Assembly (NCBI GenBank): GCA_016839605.1
Contig: JAEOTX010000151.1
Location: forward strand, 1-17,101
Length of the DNA: 17,101 nucleotides
From: Candidatus Thorarchaeota archaeon
Lineage (GTDB): Archaea > Asgardarchaeota > Thorarchaeia > Thorarchaeales > Thorarchaeaceae
Direction of reading: 5' to 3'
Below the pieces are notes generated by a model, which worked only from the letters and a program-made list of their open reading frames with translations, did not search any database and had not been told where the DNA came from. Both the position numbers and the translations under genes were made by a program. Below, piece by piece: positions 8,289 through 14,868 of this stretch. Each line of letters starts with the position of its first letter. Positions within the stretch are counted from its first letter, which is position 1.

Positions 8289-9470
8289 ATGAGTTCAAGT
8301 AACAAGAGTGTGATGGCTGTCGCGCTGATTATCATCATAGGCATCGCCGGTCTCGGCATCTATATCATTGCCTTCAATCCGTTTGCACCACCAACGACGA
8401 CAACTACCACCACAACGACAACTACCACCACGACGACTACTGGTAATCCCAATCCATACGATGTTGCAATAGTATTTGCTACCGGTGGACTTGGTGACAA
8501 GAGCTTTAATGACGCGGCTTATCAAGGCGCGTTAGACGCGGAAGACCAACTAGGTATCACTTTCACGTACGTCGAACCTGCTTCGGTCACGGAATTCGAG
8601 GGCTATATTCGTGATTATGCCCTTCATGCGGGGTATGATGATCCCTACGACCTAATTATCTGCGTTGGATTTACCCAAGCTGACGCGTTGATGACAGTGG
8701 CAAACGAAACACCAACCCAGAACTTTGCCATTATCGACATGTGGATCGACCCAGTCGTCTATCCAACAGTGACATCATTGCTCTTTAATGAGAACGAGGG
8801 TGCCGCACTTGTCGGTGCGCTCGCAGGCCTTATGACCACAACAAACAAGGTCGCTATTGCTGCGGCATATCAGAATGATATGTTTGACAGGTTCGCAGGT
8901 GGGTACGTCTTTGGAGCCAACTATACGAACCCGGGAATTGCAGGTGACCTCTCGCATGCAGCACCGTATAATTGCACAGTCGCATACGTAGGAAGTGACT
9001 GGCGCGCATTTACCGACATCCCTGCTGCAACGATACTAGCTGACGCTTTGTACAATGCGCAAGGAAATGATATTGTCTTTGCCGCAACTGGGCGAGCAGG
9101 TCTAGGTGTGATTAACACAGCCAAGGTCTTGAACGAAACCTTAGACCACCCAGCTTGGGCAATCGGAGTCGATTCGCCGCAGATGTACCTCGGGACTGCC
9201 AATCCATCTGCTCCTGATGCGCCAACAGCTGTCATCACATCAATGCTCAAGAGAGTTGACGTCGCAGTCTTTGATGCAATCAAAAATGCTACGACTACAG
9301 GCCACACACCTGGCATATGGTCCGGCACAGTTGCGAATGGCGGCCTCGACTTTGAGATAAATGCAGACTTGAGAGTCATCCCACAGAGTATCCTTGATGA
9401 GGTTAATGCGTTCAAGGCGTTGATTGCAGCGGGAACAGTTGTAGTACCGTTCAATCTCTACTGGATTTAG
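8289..9470 (+). CDS. BMP-family (PnrA/TmpC/BmpA-like) ABC substrate-binding protein, probably for nucleosides
   Basis: 393 aa: N-terminal TM anchor, Thr16 linker, then GGLGDKSFNDAAYQG, DLIICVGF, NFAIID, F.ENEG..LVG.LAG, DIVFAATG..GLGV, AIGVDS.Q and TSMLKRVDVAVF. Confidence 0.93.
   Translation: MSSSNKSVMAVALIIIIGIAGLGIYIIAFNPFAPPTTTTTTTTTTTTTTTTGNPNPYDVAIVFATGGLGDKSFNDAAYQGALDAEDQLGITFTYVEPASVTEFEGYIRDYALHAGYDDPYDLIICVGFTQADALMTVANETPTQNFAIIDMWIDPVVYPTVTSLLFNENEGAALVGALAGLMTTTNKVAIAAAYQNDMFDRFAGGYVFGANYTNPGIAGDLSHAAPYNCTVAYVGSDWRAFTDIPAATILADALYNAQGNDIVFAATGRAGLGVINTAKVLNETLDHPAWAIGVDSPQMYLGTANPSAPDAPTAVITSMLKRVDVAVFDAIKNATTTGHTPGIWSGTVANGGLDFEINADLRVIPQSILDEVNAFKALIAAGTVVVPFNLYWI
8394..8441 (+). 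repeat. Poly-Thr (16 codons) linker with an internal tandem duplication
   Basis: ACN x16 using all four Thr codons. The exact 17-nt repeat ACGACAACTACCACCAC occurs at 8397-8413 and 8415-8431 (18-nt period). Confidence 0.9.
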
Positions 9471-9488
9471 TGTGTACTGAATCGAAAC

Positions 9489-9525
9489 AGGAGGCGAACG
9501 CCTCCTTTTCCTCTTTTTCTTTATT
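9489..9525 (+). terminator. Stem-loop plus U-tract terminator/attenuator after the BMP gene
   Basis: AGGAGGC-GAAC-GCCTCCT (9489-9506) followed directly by TTTCCTCTTTTTCTTTATT. Confidence 0.75.
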
Positions 9526-9638
9526 CGTAATCTCATCCCGCACGGTTTATTACGAGGATTAGTGATACATCCGCCCATAGGATGTCATACCGAGTTTCCC
9601 TGTCGAAACTCGGCTCCCCAATCTAGGAGGTTGTAGCC

Positions 9639-11231
9639 ATCTACGCAGTTGAGCTTGAAGGAATTAGTAAGACCTTCCCGGGCGGCGTTCAGGCGAACCG
9701 GGATGTGACTCTGCGAATTGAGGAGGGTGAAGTCCACGGTCTTCTCGGCGAGAACGGAGCTGGCAAGAGTACACTCATGAATATCCTCTACGGTCTATTG
9801 TCAAAAGACTCCGGAAGAATTGTCATCAAAGGGGAGGAGGCTGATCTGCAATCCCCACAGGATGCGATCGTTAGAGGAGTAGGTATGGTCCATCAGCATT
9901 TCAAGCTGATACCTACACTCACCGTGACAGAGAACGTTATACTAGGTCTTGAATCCACGTTGAAAAGACTCGGCGCAATTAGCCGGAGAGCCAGTGGATT
10001 GATCAAGCCATTTATACGAACTGACTACAAAAGCGCTGAGGAGAAGATACGAAGAATCTCAGAAGAGAACGGACTAATAGTAGATCCACAGGCCAAAGTG
10101 GCAGACCTATCAGTCGGTCTGCAACAGAGAGTTGAAATTATAAAGACGCTCTACAGAGACGCTGACATTTTGATACTTGATGAACCAACGTCCGTACTCA
10201 CCCCCCACGAGGTTGATGAGCTCTTTGAAACCCTTGAGGCCTTCAGGGATTCCGGCAAGACCATAATCCTAATCACCCACAAGCTTCGTGAACCAATGGC
10301 ACTATGCGATAGGATTAGTGTTCTACGAGATGGCAGCCTCGTGGGAACAGTGAATAGGCAAGACACATCGCCCGAGGAGTTGGCCGAGCTAATGGTAGGG
10401 CGTCCAGTTGTTTTCAGGATTGAAAAAGCTCCGGCCTCCATTGGCGAAGCTGTCCTTTCAGTGAGAGAATTGAAAGTAGCTGACAGTCGCGGATTGACAA
10501 GAGTTAGAGGAGTTTCTTTTGAAGTTCACGCAGGGGAAATCTTTGGCATTGCTGGCGTTGAGGGGAATGGTCAGACCGAGCTAGTCGAAGCTATCTCAGG
10601 TCTGCGAAGACCTCTGGGAGGACATATCTTTCTCTCGGGTCAGGACATAGCAGGCCAGAACGCTAGAAGTGTGCGAGAGGCTGGTGTGAGCCATATCCCG
10701 GAGGACAGACAGAAACGAGGACTAGTCCTGGGATACAACGTCAGGGAGAATATGGTACTCGGGAAACATCATACCGATCGTTTTACTTCAGGACCGCGTG
10801 GCTTGTTAATTGATGGCGATAGCATCCTTGAAACTTCGGAAAAGCTGGTGGATGATTTCTCGATAAAAGTCGGGAGCCTAAAAGGACAAGTCAGCACTCT
10901 TTCTGGTGGAAACCAGCAGAAGCTGATTGTTGCAAGAGAACTGGCATTCGGACCTAAGCTGGTTATCGCGGCTCAGCCTACTAGGGGTCTGGATGTTGGA
11001 GCAACTGAATACATTCACAATGTACTTGTTACAATGAGGGATGCTGGAGGGGCTTTGCTCTTAGTAACAGCAGACTTGGATGAGGTTTGGTCCTTGGCTG
11101 ACAGGATAGGAGTGATATTTGATGGACAATTAGTAGCCATCAAAACACCCGAAGAAACCAGCATGCAAGAACTTGGATTACTTATGGCCGGTCATGGTGT
11201 TGACCAATCTTCTCAGGGGGTATCGAATTGA
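9639..11231 (+). CDS. ABC transporter ATP-binding protein with tandem NBDs (NupA/YufO-like, CUT2 family)
   Basis: Walker A GENGAGKS, HQHF Q-loop, LSVGLQQRVEI, LILDEPT and ITHKL; second NBD with degenerate GVEGNGQT, LSGGNQQK and AAQPTRGLD. The conserved N-terminus (YAVELEGISKTFPGGVQANRDV) lies upstream of the track's GTG 9705, so the start is placed tentatively at ATC 9639 behind GGAGG (9626-9630). Confidence 0.92.
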   Translation: MYAVELEGISKTFPGGVQANRDVTLRIEEGEVHGLLGENGAGKSTLMNILYGLLSKDSGRIVIKGEEADLQSPQDAIVRGVGMVHQHFKLIPTLTVTENVILGLESTLKRLGAISRRASGLIKPFIRTDYKSAEEKIRRISEENGLIVDPQAKVADLSVGLQQRVEIIKTLYRDADILILDEPTSVLTPHEVDELFETLEAFRDSGKTIILITHKLREPMALCDRISVLRDGSLVGTVNRQDTSPEELAELMVGRPVVFRIEKAPASIGEAVLSVRELKVADSRGLTRVRGVSFEVHAGEIFGIAGVEGNGQTELVEAISGLRRPLGGHIFLSGQDIAGQNARSVREAGVSHIPEDRQKRGLVLGYNVRENMVLGKHHTDRFTSGPRGLLIDGDSILETSEKLVDDFSIKVGSLKGQVSTLSGGNQQKLIVARELAFGPKLVIAAQPTRGLDVGATEYIHNVLVTMRDAGGALLLVTADLDEVWSLADRIGVIFDGQLVAIKTPEETSMQELGLLMAGHGVDQSSQGVSN

Positions 11232-12745
11232 GCGGGGAATACATCGAAGACAGCGCAGTGGATGTATCTCATACACATGAGGAGAAGTCAAGTGCATTCC
11301 AGAAGCTAGTCATCGTATTCAACAAAGTCAAGCACAGACTTCCAAGCAGAGACTATTGGAAACCGCTATTTTGGTCTCTGGGATCCATTATCCTTGCGCT
11401 CTTGGTGAGCGCTATTATGATGACGGTCATGGGGTATGATGCCATTATGGCTTTCGACTACCTCATACGCGGTGCTTTGGACCAACCCGACAGGGTTCTC
11501 CAGTATGCGACTCCATTGATTCTTACGGGCTTGTCTGTTGCACTCGCCTTCAGATGTGGCCTATTCAACATTGGACCTGAGGGGCAGCTTCTGATTGGTT
11601 CAATGGCAGCGGCAATTCTGGGATATGTGGTTGCCCTTCCATTCTTGGTTCATCCCCTAGTTTGCATCGGCGTAGCGGCATTAGCCGGGGGACTATGGGG
11701 ATTTCTTCCTGGACTGTTGAGAGCCTATCGTGGTGCTCACGAGGTGGTCACCACGATGATGCTAAGTTACGTAGCGATCAATTTCACTCAATATTTAGCC
11801 GGTGGTCCACTGAAAGAGCAGGGAGAATACGCATGGATTTCCCAAACGACTCGAATCCTAGACACTTCAGAATTGGCCAAGATATTTGGTCCATACCTGC
11901 ATTGGGGATTCGCAGTCGCCATTGTATGCGTTATTGGTATTGATTTCCTGCTGAAGCGGACTGTTCTGGGTTATGAAATGAAGGCAGTTGGATTAAACGA
12001 GGAAGCAGCAGAATATGCCGGCATTAATTCCAAGCGGAGCATGGCTCTGGCACTAGGAATCAGTGGAGCCCTAGCTGGTATTGGTGGTGCAGGAGAAATC
12101 CTAGGAACCCATCACAGATTCCTTGATGGCTGGTCAGGTGGATTGGGATGGGACGGAATAACAGTCGCAGTTCTCGGCAACAACAGTCCTTGGGGTGTGC
12201 TAGGCGCAGCGATATTCTTTGGGGCCCTCAGGGCTGGCGGGAACCGCATGCATCAGTTTGCCCACGTACCAATCGAGATCGTTGGTTTGATTCAAGGTCT
12301 GGTCGTTATATTTGTAGCTGCACCAAGAATCATTGATTGGCTAGGCAGACAGACCATAGATTCAGCAAGCTGGATTAAGAGAGAGCCTAGAGAGGGATTG
12401 CCCGGCATAGCTGTCTTGGTCTTTAATCTATTCGGACTGTTCTTGGGTATCGGCATATCGGCATCGCTGTTCGCAACCAATCCTATACTTGGCGTGATGT
12501 TTTCAATGGTCGGCATCGTCAGCGGTCTAGTGTCATACAGGATACTCTCAAGACAGGAAACAGCATTGTCCCTATCAATTATCCCAGCAATTGCATGGGT
12601 TGACGCGATGGTTCTTGATATTTTGATTGGGGAAGCGATGTTCTTCAACATGGGAATGGTAATGGTCATTGTCGGTCTCATCCTCTCGGTCGTGTTATGG
12701 ATGATGCAGGCTCTCACTGTACAACCTGATGGAGGCGAAGTATAA
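11228..12745 (+). CDS. ABC transporter permease (NupB/YufP-like) with C-terminal membrane extension
   Basis: TTG start overlapping the ATPase TGA (TTGA). Motifs ATPLILTGL, GLFNIGPEGQ, HEVVTTMMLSYVA, T.LGYEMKAVG.N..AAEYAGI and GWDGITVAVLG. 505 aa, versus roughly 350 aa typical for the family. Confidence 0.9.
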   Translation: MSGEYIEDSAVDVSHTHEEKSSAFQKLVIVFNKVKHRLPSRDYWKPLFWSLGSIILALLVSAIMMTVMGYDAIMAFDYLIRGALDQPDRVLQYATPLILTGLSVALAFRCGLFNIGPEGQLLIGSMAAAILGYVVALPFLVHPLVCIGVAALAGGLWGFLPGLLRAYRGAHEVVTTMMLSYVAINFTQYLAGGPLKEQGEYAWISQTTRILDTSELAKIFGPYLHWGFAVAIVCVIGIDFLLKRTVLGYEMKAVGLNEEAAEYAGINSKRSMALALGISGALAGIGGAGEILGTHHRFLDGWSGGLGWDGITVAVLGNNSPWGVLGAAIFFGALRAGGNRMHQFAHVPIEIVGLIQGLVVIFVAAPRIIDWLGRQTIDSASWIKREPREGLPGIAVLVFNLFGLFLGIGISASLFATNPILGVMFSMVGIVSGLVSYRILSRQETALSLSIIPAIAWVDAMVLDILIGEAMFFNMGMVMVIVGLILSVVLWMMQALTVQPDGGEV

Positions 12746-13701
12746 TGCAAGACATTCAGACTCTAGTTGCTCTGACAGGATGGCTTCTGAAGGCTACTCT
12801 AATGATGTCTACACCACTGGTCTTGGCAGCATTGGGAGGCTTGTTCTCGGAGAAGACAGGGATTGTTAACATTGGTTTGGAGGGAATGATGTTGATAGGC
12901 GCGTTTAGCGCAGTGGCAGCAACGTACTTCACTGATAATCCCTGGCTAGGCGTTCTGGCTGCGGTAATAGCTGGAGGAATGCTAGCGTCCATCCACGCCA
13001 TCGTGTGCGTCAAGTACAAAGGGAACCAAATTGTGAGTGGTGCAGGCATCATACTCTTTGCGGGAGGATTTACGACACTAATGCTGGAGGTCGTTTGGGG
13101 TGTGAAGGGAGTGTCAGACTCAGTCACAAGATTACCCAATGTGGTCATTGAGCCTATAAGCGATATTCCAATCCTAGGGGTGGCCCTTGGAGCACAGTCT
13201 CCACTTGTTTATATCATGTTAATACTGGTTGTCGTAAGCTGGTTTGTTATATACAAGACCCCGTTTGGTCTTAGAATCCAAGCAGCCGGAGAAGATCCAA
13301 GCGCATTAGACGCTGCAGGAGTCAGTGTTAGTAGTGTACGCATGATTGGGGTGGTTCTCAGCGGCTGCCTATCAGGATTGGGAGGTGCCTATCTAGCAAT
13401 CTCATATGCTTCAGAGTTTGGAAAAATGATGACTGTAGGTAGAGGATTCATCGCCCTGGCAGCCTTGATTTTCGGTAACTGGACTCCATTTGGTTGCCTC
13501 ATTGCAGGCGCATTATTCGGATTCCTAGATGGACTCCAATTTGCAATCTCTATTCTACCGGAATTCAGTTTCATGCTAGAGTATGTTAACTTCATCAAAA
13601 TGATACCATATGTCTTAGTGATAGTGGCTCTCGCAGGAATAAGAAAATCTGTCCCGCCCAAGGCAATTGGTACACCATACGAAAAGGAGGCCCGTGGTTA
13701 A
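12745..13701 (+). CDS. ABC transporter permease (NupC/YufQ-like)
   Basis: TAATG coupling to the upstream permease. Motifs TPLVLAALGGLFSEKTGIVNIGLEGMM, NQIVSG, KTPFGLRIQAAGEDP.A.DAAGVSV, GRGFIALAALIFGNW and PYV...PKAIGTPY. Confidence 0.93.
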   Translation: MQDIQTLVALTGWLLKATLMMSTPLVLAALGGLFSEKTGIVNIGLEGMMLIGAFSAVAATYFTDNPWLGVLAAVIAGGMLASIHAIVCVKYKGNQIVSGAGIILFAGGFTTLMLEVVWGVKGVSDSVTRLPNVVIEPISDIPILGVALGAQSPLVYIMLILVVVSWFVIYKTPFGLRIQAAGEDPSALDAAGVSVSSVRMIGVVLSGCLSGLGGAYLAISYASEFGKMMTVGRGFIALAALIFGNWTPFGCLIAGALFGFLDGLQFAISILPEFSFMLEYVNFIKMIPYVLVIVALAGIRKSVPPKAIGTPYEKEARG

Positions 13702-13732: not shown

Positions 13733-13762
13733 AAAAAACAAGAAAAGGGGTGAAACACCCCT
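13733..13762 (-). terminator. Stem-loop plus U-tract terminator of the small basic protein gene
   Basis: AGGGGTG-AAA-CACCCCT (13746-13762) overlaps the stop codon and is followed on the minus strand by TTTCTTGTTTTTT. Confidence 0.7.
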
Positions 13763-13955
13763 ATTTCCCGGAATTCATTCTCTGCCAGCAACGCTTGCAG
13801 ATGCCCGGCGCAGGCATGGTGTTGCCATTCGCCCAGCCCTTGCAGTTGGGAGCCACACGAACAGTGCAGCGTTCCATCTTGCGGGGATAGCGAAGACCAC
13901 CGAACTCGCGAACGCGGGTCTTCTTCTGGCCTCGACGGCCCTTCTTGTGTGGCAA
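13761..13955 (-). CDS. Small highly basic Cys4 zinc-ribbon protein; candidate ribosomal protein (eL34-like)
   Basis: 64 aa with TTG start and upstream AGGA. 18 K/R versus 2 E, and C-x7-C-x14-C-x2-C. It fills an otherwise empty intergenic gap and is flanked by TTTAAAAG upstream and a hairpin/U-tract downstream. Coding status is well supported; the family call is tentative. Confidence 0.72.
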   Translation of the reverse strand: MPHKKGRRGQKKTRVREFGGLRYPRKMERCTVRVAPNCKGWANGNTMPAPGICKRCWQRMNSGK

Positions 13956-14058
13956 GTTACTGTTTTTCCTACTATGGCCTCAAGGGCGACATAGCTATGA
14001 AAGGGCGTCATCGAGCATGTCCATAACAAAACTCACGAGCGCCAGCGAACAGCTTCTT

Positions 14059-14066
14059 CTTTTAAA
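14059..14066 (-). promoter_or_regulatory. Putative TATA box (TTTAAAAG) for the small basic protein gene, within a divergent promoter region
   Basis: Minus strand reads AGAG-TTTAAAAG, implying a leader of about 80 nt before TTG 13955. Confidence 0.45.
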
Positions 14067-14127: not shown

Positions 14128-14868
14128 ATGACTGTCCACTATGAGGAACGTGGAAAGGGAAATCCCGGTCCGATCATCATGGTCCACGGAGCAGGCGGCT
14201 CTTCAGCAACTTGGTATATGCAGGTCAAACATCTCTCTGACCGATTTCATATGATTGGCATTGATCTCAATGGACATGGAAGAACACCTGACCGGAAAGA
14301 GGATGATCTGACCCAGGCTTATCTGAATGACATCGGAACCATCGTCGGTCAATTCGAGAAACCAGTCTTATGTGGTCATTCCATGGGGGGAGCATTGACT
14401 CAGCTCTACGCTCTCAGGTATCCCGATAGATTGAGCGGAATAATCCTTGTCGGCACAGGTGCACGCCTCCGTGTTAATCCAATGATATTCAACCTGCTTG
14501 AAACTGACTTCGAAGGGTACGTCAATGCGGTTGGCGAATTCATGTTCCACGAAGACGCTGATGAATCCATAAAGGAGGCATCAAAGGCAGAAGTAAGAAA
14601 GTGTCCAGCCACTATAACACACAGAGACTTTGATTTATGCAATGAATATGATATAATGGAGGAGGTGGCTGGTCTTAGCCTACCTGCATTGGTAATAGTG
14701 GGTGATAGTGATGTCCTTACTCCGGTGAAATACTCGCAATATCTGGCGGATAGAATTGCGGCGTCTGAGATACACATAGTACCGAAAGCTGGACACAGTG
14801 TCATGCTAGAGCAGTGGGAATCATTCAACGACATAATTGCGAACTGGTATCAAGCCCTCGCAACATGA
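14128..14868 (+). CDS. Alpha/beta-fold hydrolase (Abhydrolase_1/6 type)
   Basis: Start re-set to ATG 14128 (MTVHYEERGKG), giving 246 aa. Oxyanion HGAGG, IDLNGHG, nucleophile GHSMGG, acid VGDSD and base AGH. Confidence 0.92.
   Translation: MTVHYEERGKGNPGPIIMVHGAGGSSATWYMQVKHLSDRFHMIGIDLNGHGRTPDRKEDDLTQAYLNDIGTIVGQFEKPVLCGHSMGGALTQLYALRYPDRLSGIILVGTGARLRVNPMIFNLLETDFEGYVNAVGEFMFHEDADESIKEASKAEVRKCPATITHRDFDLCNEYDIMEEVAGLSLPALVIVGDSDVLTPVKYSQYLADRIAASEIHIVPKAGHSVMLEQWESFNDIIANWYQALAT

Follow-up and report, generated by a model that had tools for sequence, protein, structure and literature searches.

A Thorarchaeota-restricted basic microprotein family and a probable uORF-hairpin translation switch in its leader

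What is encoded by a 64-amino-acid reading frame on the minus strand of a Candidatus Thorarchaeota contig, and how is its synthesis controlled? The frame lies in a stretch of 17,101 nucleotides (contig JAEOTX010000151.1; the whole stretch is called the window below), and the initial annotation saw in its product a zinc-ribbon microprotein resembling a minimised ribosomal protein eL34. The description of the protein is confirmed, as it has a net charge of +16 (18 K+R, 2 D+E), the cysteine pattern C30-x7-C38-x14-C53-x2-C56 and a TTG start. The gene is almost certainly real and belongs to a conserved, Thorarchaeota-restricted cellular family with virus-like relatives, which was previously unannotated. 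The best overall explanation, to which we assign a probability of about 0.45, is that the protein may be an inducible accessory RNA- or ribosome-binding factor, translationally coupled to a short upstream open reading frame (uORF) through hairpin melting and possibly autoregulated.

The closest database relatives of the microprotein are Thorarchaeota hypothetical proteins, and a profile search found clear matches in 29 of the 87 Thorarchaeota genomes of the order, representing six genera. Since eL34 and eS26 are each present in 78 of the same 87 genomes, the gaps are not due to genome incompleteness. Homologues were absent from the 314 other Asgard genomes searched, and a single match in Gammaproteobacteria (35%) was taken as chance. 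In comparisons with the window copy, the ratio of nonsynonymous to synonymous substitutions (dN/dS) lies at 0.12-0.31, with a median of 0.15 within genus g5, and C38, C53, C56, W41 and N43 are invariant in homologues, C30 nearly so; on these substitution patterns, the protein is under purifying selection. The claim of a real gene was thus borne out by homologues, dN/dS and conserved cysteines alike. Neither phmmer nor profile searches of Pfam, PHROGs and the PDB gave an informative match, nor did scans of a phage collection and IMG/VR with five queries, and no description of the family was found in the literature.

The proposal of a novel lineage protein therefore holds as far as conservation, lineage restriction and lack of Pfam, PHROG or PDB matches go. 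A core ribosomal role is unlikely given its occurrence in one-third of the genomes, against 78 of 87 for eL34 and eS26, together with broken copies at two loci (L032 and L034) and probably at two more (P0006 and P0015). Genomic neighbors vary between genera and synteny is not conserved; at three loci from two genera (L008, L022 and L081), the microprotein gene is flanked by the uL4/uL2 ribosomal cluster on one side and ftsZ on the other. In a weakly supported tree, the copies cluster largely by genus, consistent with vertical inheritance and recurrent loss. The gene is a stand-alone accessory gene of some Thorarchaeota, and the TATA box and terminator noted previously were both recovered (Table 1). 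A comparable hairpin with T-run is found behind the gene in nearly every relative.

Codon use was previously read as a sign of high expression. GC content at third codon positions (GC3) is 0.70, compared to 0.43-0.49 in the window neighbors and 0.455 +/- 0.044 in long open reading frames (ORFs) genome-wide, where 0.17% of 63-codon windows reach 0.70. Copies in Thorarchaeota exceed their flanks in all 40 cases with measurable flanks, which is not so in the virus-like copies described below. Ribosomal proteins of the same genome are near the genome average (0.42-0.50; eL34 0.42, eS26 0.47, uS14 0.47, uL2 0.47, eL14 0.50), and the nearest value, still lower, is that of EF-1alpha (0.57). The bias suggests bulk synthesis, as had been proposed, yet it carries no ribosomal-protein signature in this genome.

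The leader had also been noted, but a uORF and a conserved hairpin within it were overlooked. In 38 of 41 Thorarchaeota loci, representing 25 distinct leader sequences with some near-duplicates, a TATA-like box begins 29-30 nt upstream of a GTG that opens a uORF, although three of the TATA patterns were fitted to single loci. Genome-wide in the same organism, ATG codons peak at +30 from TATA-like boxes (26 versus 10-20 at other offsets), so leaderless starts are expected at this distance. The uORF ends in TAG or TAA, 37-44 nt before the microprotein gene. Its start-to-stop lengths of 24, 36, 39 and 48 nt (8, 12, 13 and 16 codons) are always in frame, for which the chance with four independent length classes is approximately 1-4%. 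In-frame internal stops occur in 0/25 distinct leaders as opposed to 8/25 in frame 3, frame 2 being uninformative because GTGA contains TGA. The exceptions are L009 (uORF present, TATA unmatched), L010 (uORF opening with ATG, and a divergent gene) and L089 (start lacking). In most genera, though not in the window's own group, the interval from TATA box to GTG contains a palindrome TTCAnGAA, some 10-20 nt upstream of the predicted start (L006, L008, L014-L021, L025, L027-L029), which is a candidate repressor site.

The uORF peptide sequence is not conserved, and the 8- and 13-codon classes have no codon-position bias, which indicates that translation matters rather than the peptide. An attenuator with an amino-acid-sensing leader peptide was ruled out, as the peptides have no common codon run. 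Stop-codon recoding of the PYLIS/SECIS type was likewise rejected; TAG and TAA interchange, and readthrough is excluded because the stop-to-start gaps span all frames. Termination-reinitiation was discarded as the 37-44 nt gap is too long; past ~20 nt, both Haloferax and E. coli nearly lose reinitiation (PMC10666635).

The uORF stop codon and the conserved hairpin share one position, as the last base of the former enters into the first pair of the latter. Pairing was found in 97.7% of cells, compared to 22-48% in slid controls. Two-sided changes occur in three of the nine pairs, and the covariation score was reached by 0/500 shuffles, a test inflated by relatedness of the sequences. Where the stop has changed from TAG to TAA (L003, L004 and L008), the change is compensated by a T on the partner strand. 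The AGG directly after the stem is nearly invariant in relatives, and the 16S rRNA gene of the same genome ends in the anti-Shine-Dalgarno sequence CCUCCU, while the start codon of the microprotein gene is weak (TTG, or ATA in some relatives).

A covariance model of the hairpin gave one strong match per genome, always at the microprotein gene. A hairpin regulon was rejected, as weaker matches (L117-L121) are not followed by any related gene; one of these (L117, G001:C84:1577-1630) combines TAA with matching stem arms and has AGG ahead of an ATG, but leads into an unrelated 45-codon ORF. The hairpin was not found in 31 eS26 leaders inspected, and an Rfam search of the leader gave no informative match. 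Mimicry of 16S rRNA was also rejected, the top score at the 16S locus being 10 bits (E 1.2). The 16S rRNA gene itself (L092, G000:C82:4569-6699, minus strand) is unusual in that it spans 2131 nt versus a 1478-position model, probably due to rRNA introns, and a 30-nt hairpin-containing insertion breaks its 3' end just before the anti-Shine-Dalgarno sequence.

More distant relatives, at 41-44% identity, were found among 1.84 billion representatives searched. They are located on short contigs with a GC content of 33-38%, which are densely filled with unknown ORFs in the same orientation and carry NrdD, ATP-dependent ligase and HNH/NUMOD3 genes as neighbors, and these contigs appear to be viral in origin. 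In six related leaders the predicted hairpin is longer, covariation being seen in 8 of its 19 pairs, and the uORF opens with ATG, runs for 4-9 codons and closes with TAG or TAA. Here, the UA of the stop forms the bulge and the purine is paired, with TAG-C to TAA-T compensation (L122 and L123), and the Shine-Dalgarno-like motif is inside the lower stem. Folding z scores are -3.8 to -7.3 in six of seven virus-like copies, and a further virus-like locus (L037) has a similar uORF-hairpin layout, which is not clearly seen at L036. Thus, the distant homologues keep the uORF-stop-hairpin design common to the Thorarchaeota copies. Since the virus-like uORF lies inside an operon, the conserved design is the stop within the hairpin and not leaderlessness. 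The family appears to have been exchanged between Thorarchaeota and virus-like elements. Directly before the uORF on two such contigs is a gene for a small RGG-rich protein (L122:4306-4518 and L123:945-1130); in L122, the microprotein gene itself had been missed by the gene caller.

Ribosomes unwind hairpins through their helicase activity. In the mechanism we propose, the transcript would start on the GUG of the uORF, and a ribosome translating it would terminate at the UAG or UAA whose third base opens the hairpin. Because that base is the first pair of the helix, the terminating ribosome must melt the hairpin, which would free the adjoining Shine-Dalgarno site and let a second ribosome initiate at the weak UUG or AUA codon about 40 nt downstream. 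Such coupling by unfolding works at ~50 nt spacing, as in rpmI-rplT at +52 nt (PMC12548453). The geometry, with the uORF stop in the helix junction and structure beside the downstream ribosome-binding site, is found in both Thorarchaeota and virus-like copies. Computed gains in accessibility are modest and absent in some copies, and folding estimates are mixed, so mRNA stability may be a further target of the switch. All in all, we regard a uORF-hairpin translation switch as quite probable. The microprotein may also bind its own bulged hairpin and so stop its own synthesis, and an inducible gene is the best reading of the locus.

Table 1. Features at the microprotein locus and adjoining genes in the window
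Feature	Position	Strand	Remarks
Microprotein ORF (64 aa)	13761..13955	minus	weak TTG start at 13955
TATA box	14060..14066	minus	TATA-like box shared by 38/41 Thorarchaeota loci, 29-30 nt before uORF GTG
uORF, predicted leaderless	13995..14036	minus	13 codons, GTG to TAG; from frame conservation, transcription start inferred
Conserved hairpin	13971..13995	minus	lower stem of 6 bp and upper stem of 3-4 bp, parted by a 2-nt bulge
Shine-Dalgarno-like AGGA	13967..13970	minus	directly 3' of hairpin, 11 nt before TTG; putative function
Terminator	13733..13762	minus	GC-rich hairpin 13762-13746, T-tract 13745-13733
ABC transporter operon	8289-13701		BMP-type, sugar or nucleoside
Alpha/beta hydrolase gene	14128-14868		divergent

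The flanks of the gene in the window are ordinary. The transporter operon is convergent on the microprotein gene, with the terminator between the latter and the permease gene, and the divergent hydrolase gene shares its promoter region with the microprotein gene.

As for the protein, a zinc ribbon had been suggested, but the predicted fold is instead a treble-clef zinc finger extended by a long basic tail, and the presumed zinc-ligand cysteines are conserved. Treble clefs consist of a knuckle hairpin, loop, beta-hairpin and helix, with the knuckle giving two ligands and the helix start two more (PMC4999995). In two AlphaFold models (predicted local distance difference test scores of 72-88 in the core), strands flank C30 and C38, a minimal hairpin is at residues 49-52, and a helix begins at 54. 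Among 48,161 chains, both models match eS26 only, and a likeness to its zinc-site fold with N-terminal tail is tentative. ESM Atlas leads point to uS14 (0.83 and 0.86, where scores <0.9 count as leads only). The microprotein resembles uS14 and S29e in size, basic tail and the x14 spacing before a CxRC-aromatic helix; it differs in having no Pfam match (PF00253) and an unlike middle segment (rank 211 of 729), and the genome has a canonical uS14. Similarity to eS26 is not detectable in sequence, with no PF01283 match, ~1% probability against Thorarchaeota eS26 alignments and an anchored scoring rank of 416 of 729. The first knuckle is C-x2-C in eS26 versus C-x7-C in the microprotein, which lacks the ~30-residue central insertion and long C-tail and has an x14 spacer and a short C-end. 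Of the 29 genomes that carry the microprotein, 28 have a canonical eS26 alongside it. Approximately 20 of the 87 Thorarchaeota genomes have two eS26 matches (a few of them fragments), apparently of two sequence types (L049-L078), and such Asgard eS26 paralogues may themselves specialize ribosomes. Most likely, the microprotein would bind RNA as an exchangeable small-subunit factor, but for a ribosome-associated role as such we see slightly less than even odds.

Several other readings have to be weighed against an inducible, translationally coupled factor. The proposal that the protein is an eL34 paralogue or replacement, or otherwise a core lineage-specific ribosomal protein, is very improbable and by now largely refuted. 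The likeness to eL34 is limited to the basic tail and terminal CxxC, and the genome's canonical eL34 (L011, G000:C46:5631-5867, minus strand) lacks the zinc site, with one cysteine left. This eL34 lies beside eL14, outside of which cluster the microprotein gene is found, and eL34 is likewise present in 28 of the 29 carriers. PF01199 gave no match at E<=10, and comparison with the genome's own eL34 by hhalign gave 0.4%. The microprotein is shorter and not universal, with broken copies, and of the RTPGG-like motif the GG is not conserved, as positions 18-20 vary freely in 30 homologues. Foldseek and VIA-align did not list eL34 for the models, an absence which does not exclude likeness. It is unlikely, too, that the family is a virus-derived autoregulatory RNA-binding module with Tat/TAR- or N/boxB-like logic, captured by a Thorarchaeota ancestor and now lost piecemeal, with its own bulged hairpin as main ligand and no ribosomal role. 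The occurrence of the hairpin only at this gene, the presence of relatives on virus-like contigs beside NrdD, ligase and HNH/NUMOD3 genes, the patchy distribution, the broken copies and the variable synteny all speak for it, but it leaves unexplained the dN/dS near 0.15 across six genera and the strong host-type codon bias of chromosomal copies, and there is no downstream operon to control.

The charge of +16, the codon bias above that of ribosomal proteins and weak Foldseek and Atlas rows with PHD, LIM and endonuclease VII treble clefs would also suit a zinc protein binding the nucleoid, DNA or RNA polymerase, made in bulk under stress, with the leader as a generic translation switch; we consider this doubtful. 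Under hok/mok logic, the uORF coupling and sequestering hairpin could hold off translation of a type I-like, growth-inhibiting toxin, in line with the weak start codon, mobile contexts and pseudogenes. This is highly improbable, as the microprotein is not a membrane peptide but a soluble, basic zinc protein, is single-copy and has high-expression codons, and no clear antisense unit was seen in a standard promoter/terminator scan, which does not cover archaeal promoters.

In Saccharolobus, eS26 is loosely bound, covers the anti-Shine-Dalgarno sequence, blocks Shine-Dalgarno pairing and favors leaderless mRNAs (PMC11698992). By analogy, the microprotein might be a stripped-down eS26 mimic in the mRNA exit channel, shifting ribosomes between leaderless and Shine-Dalgarno initiation, with its own mRNA as feedback sensor and viruses carrying the module to retune host initiation. 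We treat this as a long shot. Synthesis that needs both leaderless and Shine-Dalgarno-led initiation would then form a feedback loop. If true, an eS26-like role would bear on how Asgard ribosomes choose between the two modes, a step toward eukaryotic initiation; if false, what remains is modest, a lineage-specific microprotein whose leader is unusual. To our knowledge, little has been described of translational control in cis among Asgard archaea, and no archaeal precedent for uORF-stop/hairpin coupling was found in the literature. Either way, a uORF stop fused to a hairpin is a compact, covariation-supported switch, directly testable with reporters.

Two more known systems bear comparison. 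Under the eS26-mimic proposal, the microprotein resembles bS21, which is autoregulated in a Shine-Dalgarno-dependent manner in Flavobacterium (PMC9976891) and is encoded by phages (PMC9723584): both would be small basic proteins common to cells and viruses whose own synthesis is tied to initiation mode. They are not homologous, bS21 has no zinc, and ribosome binding of the microprotein is a proposal. The leader resembles RNA-unfolding coupling as in MS2 coat-lysis and E. coli rpmI-rplT (PMC12548453), where an upstream ribosome opens structure by the downstream ribosome-binding site over 40-55 nt; the upstream frame here is instead a dedicated, peptide-indifferent uORF whose stop sits in the helix junction and which, in the archaeal copies, is predicted to be leaderless.
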